Shown: piece by piece, positions 27,327 to 33,056 of the stretch | Layout: every line of letters starts with the position of its first letter | How positions within the stretch are numbered: position 1 is the stretch's first letter | Source: Candidatus Saccharimonadales bacterium | Lineage (GTDB): Bacteria; Patescibacteriota; Saccharimonadia; UBA4664; SCTI01 | DNA length: 55,149 bases | Direction of reading: 5' to 3' | Assembly: GCA_035479795.1 (NCBI GenBank) | Contig: DATIII010000003.1 | Span: 1-55,149 of the forward strand | Made by a program: the position numbers and the translations under genes | The notes under the pieces: model-generated | The model's database searches: none | Seen by the model: only the letters and a program-made list of their open reading frames with translations | Told to the model about the DNA's origin: nothing

Positions 27327-27755
27327 TTAGCTTTTGGCAAAAAATGAATTAATTTTTTCCAAAACCTCACGCGGAGTCATATCCGCCTTCACCATAAAGT
27401 CGACCCCAAATTCCTTGGCCTTATCACGATCCGCGTTATCCGGCGAGTTGGTTAAAACAATTATTTTTTTTAAATCAAAGCCGTCATTTTTTAAGGCTGT
27501 GATAACTTCGAAGCCCGTCAGCTCAGGCATATTTATATCCATCATGACCAAATCGGGAGCCACAGTCTTCACCAGCTCATAAGCCTCCCGTCCGTTACTG
27601 GCTAGATGAATGGCGTAACCTGCCCCTGACAATTTGGTGTCGTACATGCGCGAAATAAAAGGGTCGTCTTCAGCCAGCACGATCCGTTTCCCGTTAGGTC
27701 TTGCGGTCTCGCCGGTATCCAGCTGGGCATCGTGGGGATCACTTATGCGTGTCAT
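27327..27755 (-). CDS. Stand-alone response regulator receiver protein
   Basis: IVLAEDD, MMDINMP, VLTN, MVKA. Confidence 0.92.
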   Translation of the reverse strand: MTRISDPHDAQLDTGETARPNGKRIVLAEDDPFISRMYDTKLSGAGYAIHLASNGREAYELVKTVAPDLVMMDINMPELTGFEVITALKNDGFDLKKIIVLTNSPDNADRDKAKEFGVDFMVKADMTPREVLEKINSFFAKS

Positions 27756-29145
27756 GGTTAGCTCCTGGTTTTATCGGTAGACAGAATCCGAAGGTTGAAC
27801 CTTCACCTTCAACCGATTCAAAGATAATTGTACCACCCTGGTCTTGAATAACCCGCTTGGCGAGATAGAGGCCAAGACCCGTCCCGTCTGGCCTGGCTGA
27901 TTGGGCATTGTCGGCCCGGAAAAACTTGGTAAACAGTTTTTTTTGCGCATCGGGCGGCACACCCATGCCGGTATCTTCAACCATCAAAATCGCGCAATTG
28001 CCACTCTTCTTGACGCTGACGGTTATGCTACCCTTCTTGGTGTAATAGATGGCATTATCAATAAAATTCATAATCACCTGGCGCGTCTTGTTTTCATCTA
28101 GATCAATCATCGGCAGCGGAGACGGTGGCCGTACCAAAACCAGTTTTAGCTGCTTATCGGCGGCGTGACTCTGGAGGGCCTGGACCTCTTCGGTCACCAG
28201 TTTAGTCAGGTCAATAGCTTGCTTCTCGATAAAAAAGCGGCCGGCCGACATGCGCGAAACATTCAGCAAATCGGAAATCAAGTTAACCATTCGCTGAGCC
28301 CCACCATACGCAAAATTCAAAAATTCGCGCTGCTCGTCTTCGAGCTTGCCGGCATCTCCCTCGAGTAGCATCGAGATATAACCCTTAATGCTGGTAAGCG
28401 GCGTTCGGAGCTGGTGAGAAGCCATGGAAATAAATTCGTCTTTGGCCCGGTCAAGCTCCTTTAGATGCCTATTGGCCGTGCGTAGTCGCTTGGTGGCCTC
28501 TTGCAGGTCTTGGTCTAGCAAGGCGTTATCGATAGCAATACCAATGGCGCCGGTTAGCCGTTCGACGAGAGTGTGATCGAACTCCGAGATATTGGTCGCC
28601 TTATCGGTTGTGCCGATGATCATCAGGCCCAGAAGCTCATCACGTGATTCGAGGGGACACAGGAAATAGTTTTTAACGCCCAGCACCGCGGCAATTTCCT
28701 GCTCATCTGCCGGCTTAAGACTGGGCTTCAAAATACTGAGCAGTTTCGGGGAAATAGTAACCTTATGCCGCTTCACCGCTTGGGTGGCAGGGTTTGACGA
28801 GTGTAGACCAATATAAGTCTGAGACAGCTTTGATTGAGCCTCGATCTCGGCAATCTTGCCACTGCGATTAGAAATGCCAACGGCCACCATCTTGGTTTTG
28901 CGGCGGTCTGCCAAATAAATGCCGGCTACCGGAAAGTCACCGTCGTTAGAGACGGCGTGAACAATGCGCTGAGCTACGGCGTGAGGCTCGGTCTCCGAAC
29001 TCAAGACGATCTCATCGATCTTACGCAGTAGCATCAGCATCTTGTTGCGCTCGGCCAGCTCGCGATTCTGCTTATACATTTCCTGCGTAATATGCGGGAT
29101 ATCGGCAGATACGTCCGTCTTGGCCTTGGGACTTGGCTTCGTCAT
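27739..29145 (-). CDS. Cytoplasmic GAF-domain histidine kinase
   Basis: N-terminal coiled coil, GAF-like region ending IAIDNALL, H-box ASHQLRTPLT, NFIDNAIYY, DTGMG, GTGLGLY; no TM segment. Confidence 0.93.
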   Translation of the reverse strand: MTKPSPKAKTDVSADIPHITQEMYKQNRELAERNKMLMLLRKIDEIVLSSETEPHAVAQRIVHAVSNDGDFPVAGIYLADRRKTKMVAVGISNRSGKIAEIEAQSKLSQTYIGLHSSNPATQAVKRHKVTISPKLLSILKPSLKPADEQEIAAVLGVKNYFLCPLESRDELLGLMIIGTTDKATNISEFDHTLVERLTGAIGIAIDNALLDQDLQEATKRLRTANRHLKELDRAKDEFISMASHQLRTPLTSIKGYISMLLEGDAGKLEDEQREFLNFAYGGAQRMVNLISDLLNVSRMSAGRFFIEKQAIDLTKLVTEEVQALQSHAADKQLKLVLVRPPSPLPMIDLDENKTRQVIMNFIDNAIYYTKKGSITVSVKKSGNCAILMVEDTGMGVPPDAQKKLFTKFFRADNAQSARPDGTGLGLYLAKRVIQDQGGTIIFESVEGEGSTFGFCLPIKPGANHDTHK

Positions 29146-29167
29146 GATCTAAGTATAAGAACTTTAG

Positions 29168-29446
29168 CTAGCGCAGTAAATTCGGAACCTGGGCTTGGGG
29201 CAGGCTTTGCAAGATTGACTTAACCGCATCCTTGCAGACTTCCACCGAAGTTTGGCCAAAGAAGTTTTTGTATTGAGCAACCAAGGCATCAATAACCTCG
29301 GTTTTATTACCGGTAATCTCAACTTTTTGATTTTCCCAATCAATCTTTAGGCCTTTAACCTTATTGGCCTGTTCCAAGGCCAACGGCCCAATAATATTGC
29401 GCTGCTCAGCAATGATTTTCAGTGCCGCCTGCGCAAATGGATCCAT
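29168..29446 (-). CDS. Small helical protein (IIAEQ..IIGPLA motif), putative signalling adaptor
   Basis: 92 aa, translationally coupled to the 7TM gene and directly upstream of the kinase. Confidence 0.8.
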   Translation of the reverse strand: MDPFAQAALKIIAEQRNIIGPLALEQANKVKGLKIDWENQKVEITGNKTEVIDALVAQYKNFFGQTSVEVCKDAVKSILQSLPQAQVPNLLR

Positions 29447-30258
29447 TAGGCGCCCACCTTGCCGTAGGTGTGCCCAAATCTGAGCAAACTTATCGTCATG
29501 AGAAAGTAAGATACCAGATAGATAAAGTCACTGATGCTGCCAGGATAAACCGCCTGCTTATGGGCTAGGTAGAGGAAGGTAAAGTCGGCCGCGTACTGCA
29601 CAGCCAGCGCAAAAATGACCAGCAGAATGGTTTTTCGCATTATTCCGCCCAGCAGTTTTCTCGAAAGTAGATATGCCAAAATGGCAACCGAAATGTAAAT
29701 GGCTTGACCCAGCGGATAGCCGAAGTCTAGTGAGACGGTCAGCCATTGGGCGCCTGCAAATTGATAGTCACGTAGGAACTCGGCGTAGGATGCGAGGAGG
29801 ATTACCAGGGGGATAAAGAGGGCGAGGATGCGGCTGCCAAAGCCTCTGAGCGAGAACTTAACCCCGGCAGCCTTGGCCAGCTGCCAGCCACCGGCAATAT
29901 ACAGCGGGATGCTACCGAAATAGCCGATGTCGCCAAGCGATGGATAAGGTATTTCAGTGTGTAAAAAATAGGCATAGTAGCTATATGCCAGCTGACCAAA
30001 TTCCTGGAAAAGTAGCCCTAGGGCAAACAGCCCGACGGCCTTGCCTACCACGCTCTTGAAGCCACCCCAGGCGCGAGCCGTAACTAAGCCAAAAATTCCG
30101 CCGTACAGCGCCATTAAGCCATAGGTGCCCGAGAAAATTTGATAGGCAATATGATCTTTAGGGAACGCCACCTGAATGTAGCCCCACCAGGCGGTCAGGC
30201 CTAAGAACATTACGACAGCTAGTCGCCAAGGCCCCTTGTTTGCTGTAACAGTGTTCAT
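29446..30258 (-). CDS. Stand-alone ~7-TM membrane sensor-like protein
   Basis: About seven hydrophobic helices with intramembrane motifs PYPSLGDIGY, LDFGYP, SDFIYLVSY; no cytoplasmic output domain. Confidence 0.8.
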   Translation of the reverse strand: MNTVTANKGPWRLAVVMFLGLTAWWGYIQVAFPKDHIAYQIFSGTYGLMALYGGIFGLVTARAWGGFKSVVGKAVGLFALGLLFQEFGQLAYSYYAYFLHTEIPYPSLGDIGYFGSIPLYIAGGWQLAKAAGVKFSLRGFGSRILALFIPLVILLASYAEFLRDYQFAGAQWLTVSLDFGYPLGQAIYISVAILAYLLSRKLLGGIMRKTILLVIFALAVQYAADFTFLYLAHKQAVYPGSISDFIYLVSYFLMTISLLRFGHTYGKVGA

Positions 30259-30263
30259 CTAGT

Positions 30264-30295
30264 AAAATTCTATAAGCATAAGCACTATATGTCAA
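30264..30295 (-). promoter_or_regulatory. Sigma70-type promoter of the 7TM-kinase operon with the GCTTATGCTTA motif in its spacer
   Basis: Minus strand TTGACA-tatagtgcttatgctta(17)-TAGAAT. Confidence 0.75.
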
Positions 30296-30317
30296 TCTAA
30301 AATCGACCCTGTCAAGC

Positions 30318-31229
30318 ATGCTATTACCATTCCCCAGCTTCAAAGCCCTAGAGCTCCATGACCGGCCGCAAATCGAGGCCATAACCGGCGACTTTCCGAA
30401 CTATTCGGATTTTAATTTTGTCAGCCTGTGGAGCTGGGACACGCGAGGCGAGATTGCGGCGTCTGTACTCCACGGCAACTTAGTGGTGAAGTTTACAGAT
30501 TACATTACCGGCGAGCCACTGTATAGCTTCATCGGAACCAATGAGGTCGACGACACCATCAAGCAGGTAACTGCCCTGGCCCGGCAACAAGGAATTAGTG
30601 ATGCCCTGGAACTAATTCCCGAGGAAGCTATTACGAAGATTGAGAATCCCGAAGATTTTGAAATCGCCGAAGATCCGAATAACTTTGACTACATTATTTC
30701 AGTAGACTCGTTTACGGCGCTTCAAGGCCAGGAGTACGAAGCCAAACGCAAGGCAATCAACCAGTTTAAAAGAGCTTACCCCCATGTTGTCTCCCGACCA
30801 CTGGACATAAAAGACGAAGAAACTCAGACCAAAATTATTGGTCTTGCTCAACTTTGGGTCGAGCTTAAAGGGCATGAAGCGCTCGAAGCTGAAAACGAAC
30901 TTAAGGCTATTGAGCGCTTGCTGCAGTATTCGTACATCTTTCCACCTCAAGGCGTTGGTATTTACGATGGAGACAAACTAATCGCATTTAGTATCGACGA
31001 GATAATGCCGGACGGTATCAACGCCTTGGGTCACTTCCAAAAGGCCGACAGTCGGTATAAGGGTATATTCCCCTTCCTCCAAAAAGAAAACCTTTCCGAA
31101 TTACAAAAAAAGGGAGTGCAGCGGCTAAATATCGAACAAGACCTGGGGCTAGAAAGCCTGCGCCGCTCCAAGATTCAGCTGCGCCCTATCGAGTATCACA
31201 AAAAATACTTTGTGGCAGTTAAACACTAA
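30318..31229 (+). CDS. DUF2156 family protein (MprF/LPG-synthase C-terminal-like GNAT/Fem fold)
   Basis: SDFNFVSLWSW, NNFDYI, KRKAINQF, HFQKAD..YKGI, LNIEQDLGLESLRRSK..LRP. Confidence 0.85.
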   Translation: MLLPFPSFKALELHDRPQIEAITGDFPNYSDFNFVSLWSWDTRGEIAASVLHGNLVVKFTDYITGEPLYSFIGTNEVDDTIKQVTALARQQGISDALELIPEEAITKIENPEDFEIAEDPNNFDYIISVDSFTALQGQEYEAKRKAINQFKRAYPHVVSRPLDIKDEETQTKIIGLAQLWVELKGHEALEAENELKAIERLLQYSYIFPPQGVGIYDGDKLIAFSIDEIMPDGINALGHFQKADSRYKGIFPFLQKENLSELQKKGVQRLNIEQDLGLESLRRSKIQLRPIEYHKKYFVAVKH

Positions 31230-32136
31230 CCATCCAGACGCCGACAAACATTATGGCCGCCAGGCTCACCTTGGTTATAACCTGCGAGGCGGCCGTTTCC
31301 TCACTGAATATCTTTGGAAATGCCGTCGATAGTATGACCCCATAAAGAATCCCATAGAAAACTTGGGTACTGCCAAGGGCCGTGACTATGGCCACTGAAC
31401 CTAAAGCGATTGCCAAAAAAGTGATAGCCTTAGATACCAGAAACAGTATTTCGTTGGTAAACATTATGCCCAAGACCGAGCCGCCAACATTATTAAAGCT
31501 TTCGAGGAATGCCCTTCTCACCTTCTTAAGAAGCAGAAAGGCTACCAGACCACCAGTCGCCACTCCCCAGCTTTCATAAATCAAGACATTAACAAAGTCA
31601 TTTTTTCCAATGAAGGCGAACTTAATCACGATAAATGAAAGCGCGATCAATAATGAAGTTAACAGCATTAGGTAGAACGATTCATTTAGCCGAACCTTTT
31701 CACTTGGTTTGCCGACCGAAAGCGCCAAGGCTGACACCACTACCAAAAGGAAACCGACTATTTTCCAAAGCGAGAGCACCTCGCCTAAGAGTATGTATGA
31801 AAGTGGCAAGACAAAAACCGGCACTAACTGCAGCATGGCAATTATGTAGCTAGCCTCACTTTTGGCTATGGCGTGAAAGTAGATAACGTAAGCCCAAAGA
31901 GTTATAAAACCAGCAGTCAATATCAGGAAAGCTGTTGCCGGCGCCACACTCGGCTGCCCCGAGCCCAGCCATATGACCGTTCCGGCGACAGCCGCGGTGA
32001 TAGCACCGTAGATTGGTACGCCCCGATAATCTGAAACTTTATGCTCTACTACATACTTGTCGAGGAACATGACCACCGTATAGATAGCTGGTGCGATTAA
32101 TGCTAACCAAAGCCAATTCATGTTCAAATCATACAC
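31219..32136 (-). CDS. EamA/DMT family transporter
   Basis: Ten hydrophobic segments in two repeats; MLQLVPVF...SYILLGE.LS..KIVG. Confidence 0.88.
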   Translation of the reverse strand: MYDLNMNWLWLALIAPAIYTVVMFLDKYVVEHKVSDYRGVPIYGAITAAVAGTVIWLGSGQPSVAPATAFLILTAGFITLWAYVIYFHAIAKSEASYIIAMLQLVPVFVLPLSYILLGEVLSLWKIVGFLLVVVSALALSVGKPSEKVRLNESFYLMLLTSLLIALSFIVIKFAFIGKNDFVNVLIYESWGVATGGLVAFLLLKKVRRAFLESFNNVGGSVLGIMFTNEILFLVSKAITFLAIALGSVAIVTALGSTQVFYGILYGVILSTAFPKIFSEETAASQVITKVSLAAIMFVGVWMVSV

Positions 32137-32193: not shown

Positions 32194-32676
32194 ATGAAAA
32201 TATCGATAACCTCCGGATCTGGAACCGGCCCCACCGAACTCGCCGCCTTTGATGACGCTCTAATGAAAGCTGGCACAGCGAATTTTAACCTGATTGTGTT
32301 GAGCTCGATGATTCCGCCAGGATCCGAAGTGGTGGTTTCCAAAGACCCTGTGGTGCCACCGGGCGACTGGGGCGACAAACTTTATGTTGTCATGGCCGAA
32401 CAGCGCACCAGCCAACACCACCAAGAAGCCTGGGCTGGGATTGGCTGGGTACAAAACGCCCAGACAGGCAAGGGTATGTTTGTGGAACACCACGGCCACA
32501 GCGAGGAACATGTGACAGATGATATTAAAGCCACCCTAAAGTCCCTGATGGCCGGCCGCCCCGATGAAGAATTTGGCGAAATCCACATGCAACTATGTAA
32601 CGCTAAGTGCATTGGTGAGCCGGTTTGCGCCTTAGTGGTTGCCGCCTTTGAATCAAGCGGCTGGAGTTCCAGGTAG
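32194..32676 (+). CDS. pdaD: Pyruvoyl-dependent arginine decarboxylase (PvlArgDC)
   Basis: G.GPTELAAFDDAL..AGTANFNLIVLSSMIPP with the Ser-Ser self-cleavage site; GMFVEHHG; CALVVAAF. Confidence 0.88.
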   Translation: MKISITSGSGTGPTELAAFDDALMKAGTANFNLIVLSSMIPPGSEVVVSKDPVVPPGDWGDKLYVVMAEQRTSQHHQEAWAGIGWVQNAQTGKGMFVEHHGHSEEHVTDDIKATLKSLMAGRPDEEFGEIHMQLCNAKCIGEPVCALVVAAFESSGWSSR

Positions 32677-33056
32677 TGGCTGATCAAATAAAAATCGCCT
32701 TGATTGAAGACGATGCGGCGATTGTAAATATGTACCTAACCAAGCTTCGCCACGAGGGGTTTAATGTTTTGACTGCCCCCGATGGCTTGGCGGGCTTAGA
32801 ATTGGTTGTAAGTTTCAATCCCGATGTGGTTTTGCTCGATATTATGATGCCGGAGTTTGGCGGAGTGGAGTTTCTCGAAAAAATTCGGTCCAAGTCAGCC
32901 AACGACAATCTAAAGATCATTGTCATGACCAATATCGACGACCCGAAGCTTCAGGCCTCGCTGAAGGGCATGAAGATTTCTGATTATGTCGTGAAGGCCG
33001 AAATCACCCCCGCCGAAATGGTTGATAAAATCCGCGTCTTAACTAAGCCAGAATAG
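32676..33056 (+). CDS. Stand-alone response regulator receiver protein
   Basis: LIEDD, LLDIMMP, MTN, YVVKA; start overlaps the pdaD stop. Confidence 0.92.
   Translation: MADQIKIALIEDDAAIVNMYLTKLRHEGFNVLTAPDGLAGLELVVSFNPDVVLLDIMMPEFGGVEFLEKIRSKSANDNLKIIVMTNIDDPKLQASLKGMKISDYVVKAEITPAEMVDKIRVLTKPE

Follow-up and report, generated by a model that had tools for sequence, protein, structure and literature searches.

Bacteria of the Patescibacteria, or Candidate Phyla Radiation (CPR), account for a large part of bacterial diversity and live on other cells, to which they attach, and to our knowledge almost nothing is known about how they sense their surroundings. Here we describe a two-component locus from a member of this group, Candidatus Saccharimonadales bacterium (assembly GCA_035479795.1; 646 kb, 97.5% complete), which lies on contig DATIII010000003.1 in a stretch of 55,149 nucleotides (nt) that we will henceforth refer to as the window and to which all coordinates refer. 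The locus is a minus-strand operon of four tightly packed genes, which in order encode a membrane protein of 270 amino acids (aa) with eight predicted transmembrane (TM) helices (29446..30258; referred to as 8TM), a soluble protein of 92 aa (29168..29446; referred to as p92), a soluble histidine kinase of 468 aa (27739..29145) and a receiver-only response regulator of 142 aa (27327..27755). A previous sequence-only reading of the window had proposed that the first three of these proteins constitute a single receptor split into three polypeptides. The three open reading frames on which it relied are all present on the minus strand, with the 92-aa protein encoded between sensor and kinase, but while the trio was correctly delimited, the fourth gene of the operon was left out.

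The junctions between the four genes are close throughout: the ATG of p92 overlaps the TAA of the 8TM gene upstream of it, the kinase starts 22 nt past the end of p92, and the receiver gene overlaps the kinase stop by 17 nt. A sigma-70-like promoter (TTGACA-17-TAGAAT; 30267..30295, minus strand), which matches the consensus at 11 of 12 positions, is predicted to end 8 nt ahead of the 8TM ATG, inside the 59-nt gap (30259-30317) that separates this codon from the divergent start codon of a gene coding for a DUF2156 protein. The region contains three promoter-like sites (vs. 3.4 expected by chance), of which the one ahead of 8TM is the best and is correctly placed; its predicted -10 box is so near the ATG that the mRNA would have little or no leader. 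We found no convincing internal terminator within the four genes. Given that they overlap or abut behind one strong putative promoter, the genes are predicted to form a single operon. The source genome contains single copies of the 8TM gene, of p92 and of the N-terminal region of the kinase, and has roughly six HisKA kinases and ten receivers.

The kinase was recognised by the HisKA (PF00512, E = 2.7e-20) and HATPase_c (PF02518, E = 7.6e-25) profiles, and the motifs that define a HisKA-type kinase are all intact (H244 in the H-box, N360, G1 at 391, F405 and G2 at 421). As the sequence-only reading had described it, the protein is TM-less and carries a GAF domain: no hydrophobic segment was found along its 468 residues, and the helical stretch with which it opens, ITQEMYKQNRELAERNKML, leads into a region that scores marginally above the cut-off of the GAF_2 profile (29.1 vs. 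28.6 bits) and below those of GAF_3 and GAF. The GAF domain was also recognised in a natural triple fusion (see below). The last protein of the operon matches the receiver profile (PF00072, E = 3.3e-19) over residues 25-135 of its 142 and has D30/D31, D73, T102 and K123 in place, which identifies it as a stand-alone receiver, i.e., one without an output domain. We classify the locus as a HisKA two-component system with a new, split input contributed by two unnamed families.

The 8TM and p92 families

An AlphaFold2 model of the 8TM protein was built from 91 homologues and reached a predicted local distance difference test score (pLDDT) of 91.4 and a predicted template modelling score (pTM) of 0.91. 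It contains helices at residues 9-31, 37-63 (kinked), 70-99, 108-130, 140-162, 172-205, 208-233 and 242-269, meaning that what had been described as a 7TM sensor is indeed a membrane protein but has eight helices rather than seven. Averaged over the family, the N-terminus and the loops 2-3, 4-5 and 6-7 each carry between 2.5 and 3.7 Lys and Arg residues, compared with 0.3-1.1 in loops 1-2, 3-4, 5-6 and 7-8, where 1.5-2.0 acidic residues are found instead. This sharp positive-inside charge pattern places both termini in the cytoplasm, in agreement with the cytoplasmic domains that are fused to either end of the module in its relatives.

The polar motifs that stood out in the sequence-only reading coincide with the best-conserved positions in a large family. 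They comprise PYPSxGD, LDxxYP and DxxYxxxY, which lie where helices 4, 6 and 8, respectively, start, along with the pairs Q85/Q89 (helix 3) and Q221/D225 (helix 7). Specifically, P106 is invariant in the family alignment, and Y105, S107, D110, D178, Y181, P182, Q221, D225, D244, Y247 and Y251 are kept in at least 85-90% of members. All of these motifs map to the outer half of the membrane, where the conserved residues (four Asp, three Gln and several Tyr and Pro) may form an outward-facing acidic and aromatic pocket. We compared family members linked to p92 (n = 67) with those fused to helix-turn-helix (HTH) and NB-ARC regions (n = 28), and found that all outward-pocket residues were kept in both classes (at frequencies of 0.79-1.0). 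By contrast, the positions strongly kept only in the p92-linked class were all cytoplasmic, namely S69 (0.90 vs. 0.46 in the HTH/NB-ARC class), G204 (0.88 vs. 0.04) and G205 (0.94 vs. 0.64). This is what one would expect of a shared sensor whose output surface differs between classes, and it makes S69, G204 and G205 a candidate docking site for p92 or the kinase.

Clustered at 90% identity, the 8TM family yields at least 1,199 groups, almost always with lengths of 260-300 aa; at 50% identity there are 714 representatives, of which we inspected the best 150 in addition to 23 long relatives. No Pfam or NCBIfam profile matched the window protein at E <= 0.1, and none matched recurrently when 46 family members were scanned at E <= 1. 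Comparisons with PDB returned nothing significant, either by sequence profile or by a Foldseek search with the AlphaFold2 model.

Several known types of membrane protein were considered as possible relatives and rejected. Resemblance to G-protein-coupled receptors was limited to generic bundle matches (E >= 0.016, TM-score 0.4-0.5, root-mean-square deviation 8-10 Å), and no profile of the MASE1-type, 5TMR-LYT, 7TMR-DISM or 7TMR-HD families matched the window protein or the 46 members. An identity as a microbial rhodopsin or another 7TM receptor is at odds with the eight helices, the lack of a Pfam match and the lack of a lysine at the conserved positions. The membrane part of MprF (LPG_synthase_TM/flippase) gave neither a Pfam nor a PDB sequence match, and no MprF was present among the 50 listed fold matches. 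A comparison of the hairpins TM3-4 and TM7-8 gave a signal too weak to claim an internal repeat (hhalign E = 5e-4, probability 32%). In six relatives (P0168, P0191, P0198, P0214, P0255 and P0265) the 8TM module is preceded by two N-terminal TM helices and a soluble domain of about 150 aa that has no Pfam match.

The second component, p92, was predicted by AlphaFold2 to adopt a helix-helix-hairpin-helix-helix (alpha-alpha-beta-beta-alpha-alpha) fold (pLDDT 94.5, pTM 0.86). Searches of Pfam and NCBIfam with every member of its alignment returned nothing at E <= 1, nor did a sequence-profile search of PDB give anything significant; Foldseek matches to H-NOX proteins were recurrent but weak (E >= 0.58, TM-score <= 0.49) and were judged to be generic. 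The p92 family consists of 929 clusters of 91-97 aa, none of them informatively named. Among its full-length paralogs, those at two loci (L105 and L107) lie beside D-Ala-D-Ala-ligase-like genes, with no kinase or membrane protein adjoining. A full-text search of the literature found no description of an 8TM/p92 module, and both families are without a name or a prior description that we could find.

Genes resembling p92 also occur in genomes without 8TM. At 10 of 16 such loci they are directly adjacent to a kinase with the architecture 1TM-GAF-PAS-HisKA-HATPase_c, frequently with a receiver gene first and the kinase last. Most of the remaining loci adjoin other proteins with 5-8 TM helices, and one p92-like domain is fused behind a different polytopic domain. 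From these associations p92 seems to serve generally in the Patescibacteria/CPR phylum to connect membrane proteins with GAF-type kinases.

Gene order, co-occurrence and natural fusions

We examined the conservation of gene order in 80 related loci, using our own profiles made from a closer homologue set, as the diverse alignment contained no stretch that was conserved enough. Of the 77 loci with room for it, 70 have a p92 gene immediately downstream of 8TM, and a HisKA kinase follows the 8TM-p92 pair in 58 of 67. This order is kept at just 45-55% protein identity, and the trio is syntenic across Microgenomates, Parcubacteria, Saccharibacteria and WWE3. All named carriers of 8TM belong to the Patescibacteria/CPR (Roizman-, Levy-, Davies-, Woese- and Gottesmanbacteria, Saccharibacteria and WWE3, as well as Nomura-, Taylor-, Vogel-, Uhr-, Kerfeld- and Paceibacteria). 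Many contigs with typical CPR gene content (L006, L009, L011, L012, L014 and others), which come from third-party assembled bins, are titled ‘uncultured Gammaproteobacteria bacterium’; these titles are probably placeholders or wrong taxonomic labels.

Distribution across genomes agrees with gene order. In a sample of 151 genomes of the phylum, the 8TM gene was present in 15 (10%), and p92 was present in 14 of these 15, compared with p92-like genes in 8 of the 136 genomes without 8TM (Fisher p = 2e-13); in the single 8TM genome without p92, the 8TM gene is cut by the contig end. The sequence-only reading had suggested comparing the phyletic distributions of its components, and for 8TM and p92 these are clearly not independent. 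At a finer scale, the module was absent from the 7 further genomes sampled within the class of the source genome, and among 41 close relatives it was present in 6, grouped by genus: its distribution is patchy, and it behaves as an accessory block. One locus (L096; G077:C2, 11222-13311) contains a decayed copy of DUF2156, 8TM and p92 with in-frame TGA, TAG and TAA stops, adjoining two 8TM-p92 pairs and a kinase, all of them intact, which suggests that the module was duplicated and then decayed within one genome.

The components encoded separately in the window are also found as parts of single proteins. Among about 170 cluster representatives, at least 21 are colinear 8TM-p92 fusions of 344-524 aa, and the window p92 aligns with their tails by BLASTP at E-values from 1e-6 to 1e-25. 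Parsimony on a FastTree tree of the 8TM domain gives at least 15 changes of the fused state, hence fusion or fission recurred. Two triple fusions (P0218, 796 aa, and P0270, 799 aa), which share 53% identity and were recovered in the assemblies of several samples, have the architecture 8TM-p92-GAF-HisKA-HATPase_c, i.e., the gene order of the window. One genome (G027) encodes a separate 8TM protein followed by a p92-coil-HisKA-HATPase_c fusion without GAF, in which p92 continues into ITEDLYKRNVELAAKNAML, a stretch corresponding to the N-terminal helix of the window kinase, and another (G030) encodes an 8TM-PAS-HisKA-HATPase_c protein without p92. Fused versions, for which the sequence-only reading had recommended a search, therefore exist for every junction and are colinear with the window. 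Together with synteny and the co-occurrence of 8TM and p92, they strongly support its proposal that the three window proteins would be consecutive segments of one receptor. Its statement that similar membrane domains are fused elsewhere to kinases or to GGDEF/EAL domains was borne out for kinases, whereas no GGDEF/EAL fusion was found among the 150 best representatives and the 23 long relatives.

Kinases are not the only partners of the 8TM module. It was found behind HTH and NB-ARC regions, typical of signal transduction ATPases with numerous domains (STAND), in at least 20 clusters, and also behind TrmB-type HTH domains and in tandem pairs. Since the module can feed a kinase, a STAND switch or an HTH domain, it behaves as an input domain, and identifying its ligand would explain several regulatory systems together. 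In the STAND proteins (P0130, P0152, P0196, P0208, P0237, P0271-P0288 and L011:1740-4136) 8TM takes the place that is usually held by a soluble repeat sensor, and these proteins look like membrane-embedded STAND regulators of CPR that are apparently undescribed. In L011, the STAND protein directly follows 8TM-p92 in the usual slot of the kinase.

It could be argued that the genes are independent and have become neighbours by chance or through the packing of operons in a small genome. CPR genomes are gene-dense, and overlaps between unrelated genes are common in them. Packing of this kind would, however, have to account for synteny maintained across classes at such low identity, for the strength of the co-occurrence and for covalent fusions at every junction. 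We consider independence extremely improbable, and the fusion and co-occurrence data effectively refute it.

A proposed receptor in three pieces

In our preferred reading, to which we assign a probability of roughly 0.7, the four genes of the operon together specify a single two-component device, in which the sensor kinase is divided among three polypeptides. The 8TM protein would be the input module, and its outer-half pocket would bind the signal, which we infer to be a cationic or polar molecule, or a lipid head group. The resulting change would be relayed to the cytoplasmic face, where the candidate elements are the WGGxKS motif in loop 2-3 and the LGGxM motif in turn 6-7. We expect p92 to dock at the C-terminus and the cytoplasmic face of 8TM, and its own C-terminus to engage the N-terminal helix leading into the GAF domain of the kinase, in which case p92 would occupy the position of HAMP or another juxtamembrane linker in one-piece kinases. 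The kinase would then autophosphorylate at H244 and transfer the phosphate to D73 of the receiver-only regulator, which would act through protein-protein contact or a relay rather than by binding DNA.

Several observations weigh against this reading. Only a minority of proteins are fused, with triple fusions rare at 2 clusters; the parsimony count comes from a FastTree tree of a short membrane domain, and some of the fused gene calls in metagenomes could be insertion or deletion artefacts at the overlapping TAATG junction. At two loci (L072 and L078) the p92-kinase pair is inverted away from DUF2156-8TM, and at a few others the kinase is 3.5 kb off or on the other side, meaning that the link between 8TM and the kinase is looser than that between 8TM and p92; in addition, some p92 paralogs have no kinase nearby. 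The proposed contacts among 8TM, p92 and the kinase derive from comparative data, and the putative pocket and docking surface were placed by sequence position, not by clustering in three dimensions. Finally, it could be the GAF domain that senses the ligand.

Taken to its limit, this last point implies that 8TM and p92 just tether the kinase to the membrane while GAF perceives a cytoplasmic signal. It is well established that GAF domains can sense small molecules, and the related kinases found in partnership with p92-like proteins carry just a single TM anchor in addition to GAF-PAS. On the other hand, eight helices are needless for an anchor, as is a polar outer-half pocket that is invariant across all architecture classes; the 8TM module also holds the sensor position of STAND regulators, and the p92-kinase fusion of G027 has no GAF domain at all. 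A pure tethering role thus seems to us improbable, and we favour 8TM as the input of the split kinase.

The proposed architecture is unusual for two-component signalling, as the sequence-only reading had stated, yet it is not without precedent, which can be found in the receptor-CheW-CheA, GraX-GraS-VraFG and UhpC-UhpB systems. The first of these, in which the receptors are methyl-accepting chemotaxis proteins (MCPs), shares with the window the division into membrane receptor, small soluble adaptor and TM-less kinase, each a polypeptide of its own, as well as a CheY-like single-domain receiver as output. It differs in that the kinase of the window is a class I HisKA kinase with GAF and not CheA, p92 is an alpha/beta domain without similarity to the SH3-like CheW, and the receptor is an eight-helix bundle without an MCP signalling domain; moreover, the pieces described here also occur covalently fused in other lineages. 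In line with this, the CheW, CheA and MCPsignal profiles had no match in the three window proteins, and CheW was absent genome-wide (control genomes were positive).

In the GraXSR-VraFG and BceRS-AB systems of Firmicutes, sensing is likewise performed by a separate membrane protein, and cytoplasmic GraX links the sensor to the kinase. The Gra system controls mprF, which encodes a lysyl-phosphatidylglycerol synthase, and the catalytic domain of the latter (DUF2156/LPG_synthase_C) is the one encoded by the conserved neighbour of 8TM. However, the sensor in those systems is an ATP-binding cassette (ABC) transporter, the kinases GraS and BceS are membrane-embedded, GraX is unrelated to p92, and the Gra regulator binds DNA whereas that of the window is receiver-only; the tie between 8TM and DUF2156 is one of gene adjacency and co-occurrence.

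Among one-piece kinases, LytS/YehU (5TMR-LYT-GAF-kinase) and those with MASE1 or 7TMR-DISM domains have a polytopic sensor followed by GAF or PAS and then by the kinase, a layout also seen in the triple fusion P0218. Nevertheless, 8TM matches none of their Pfam families, an extra domain, p92, is inserted between the membrane and GAF, and in most lineages the pieces are separate genes. UhpC resembles 8TM in being a separate membrane sensor protein, in its case for the kinase UhpB. Finally, Anabaena sensory rhodopsin and its transducer ASRT form a pair of a helical-bundle membrane sensor and a small soluble protein encoded in the same operon. Unlike that rhodopsin, 8TM has no rhodopsin family or fold match, eight helices instead of seven and no conserved lysine, and ASRT is all-beta and unrelated to p92.

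The present analysis defines two sizeable unnamed families, i.e., an eight-helix membrane sensor module and a 92-residue connector. With a receptor that has been repeatedly cut and rejoined in evolution, they offer a natural system in which to study membrane-to-kinase signalling through non-covalent contacts.

Neighbouring genes and the possible signal

The most conserved neighbour of 8TM is the gene divergent to it (30318..31229, plus strand), which encodes a stand-alone DUF2156/LPG_synthase_C protein of 303 aa without TM helices. The protein matches PF09924 at 93.5 bits (cut-off 27.5), and its closest PDB entry, 2hqy, is an uncharacterised stand-alone protein. The DUF2156 fold is the catalytic fold of MprF-type aminoacyl-lipid synthases, which act on membrane lipids. 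Such a gene lies directly upstream of 8TM, in either orientation, in 70 of 75 close loci, and across the phylum sample it was found in 8 of the 15 genomes with 8TM compared with 11 of the 136 others (p = 5e-5), always adjacent to 8TM when both were present. The frequency with which 8TM accompanies an MprF-type transferase suggests a role in controlling cell-surface charge, which would be relevant to an epibiotic lifestyle. Beyond it lies a gene for an EamA/DMT-family transporter (31219..32136, minus strand), assigned by profile match, which is a frequent neighbour of 8TM (51 of 80 related loci).

The same associations can be explained differently, with 8TM serving the DUF2156 transferase and EamA as an anchor, a substrate presenter or a flippase, and with p92 and the kinase monitoring its working state, in the way that BceS monitors BceAB and DcuS monitors DctA. 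Adjacency and genome-wide co-occurrence would both follow from such a role, as would the co-directional DUF2156-8TM pair that is preserved at L072 and L078, where p92 and the kinase are inverted, and it would provide a link to the membrane for a DUF2156 protein that has no TM helix of its own, whereas MprF-type synthases act on membrane lipids. We nevertheless regard this alternative as unlikely. DUF2156 is missing from 7 of the 15 genomes with 8TM, and no DUF2156-8TM fusion was found among about 170 representatives, in which fusions to signalling outputs are common. Furthermore, 8TM has no sequence match to LPG_synthase_TM or to any transporter family, neither MprF nor a transporter is among the 50 listed fold matches, and its conserved residues do not include the typical catalytic His, Ser or Lys.

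Returning to 8TM as the input module of a split kinase, the putative pocket gives some indication of what might be sensed. Carboxylate and aromatic pockets are the usual means by which proteins hold ammonium or guanidinium groups, and because an acidic and aromatic pocket would suit such groups, a cationic ligand is our leading guess; candidates are an aminoacylated lipid head group, an amine or a cationic peptide.

A possible source of amines is encoded nearby, where the gene for a pyruvoyl arginine decarboxylase (PvlArgDC; 32194-32676, plus strand) is translationally coupled to a second receiver-only gene (32676-33056, plus strand), the start of which overlaps the decarboxylase stop codon. 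PvlArgDC was found within 6 kb of 8TM in 34 of the 80 closest loci but anywhere in the genome in only 1 of the 15 genomes with 8TM in the phylum sample. The latter count rules out arginine decarboxylase as a family-wide associate, and the link to amine synthesis is therefore a feature of the sub-clade to which the window belongs and not of the module as such. For this sub-clade one may speculate, at rather long odds, that 8TM is the receptor of a self-made cationic signal and that its neighbours form a make-export-sense loop: arginine (or S-adenosylmethionine) decarboxylase and DUF2156 would make an amine or aminoacylated product, EamA would export or flip it, and 8TM would sense it, with p92 and the kinase relaying the signal to the receiver-only proteins. 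If true, this would amount to autocrine or quorum-type signalling, or to surface-charge homeostasis, in ultra-small epibiotic bacteria.

At two related loci (L003 and L004, 2736-3128) the slot of the window's arginine decarboxylase is taken by an S-adenosylmethionine decarboxylase (PF02675), meaning that two different pyruvoyl decarboxylases share one conserved neighbourhood position. A receiver adjoins PvlArgDC in 11 of the 80 related loci, and phosphorylation signalling may control this enzyme post-translationally.

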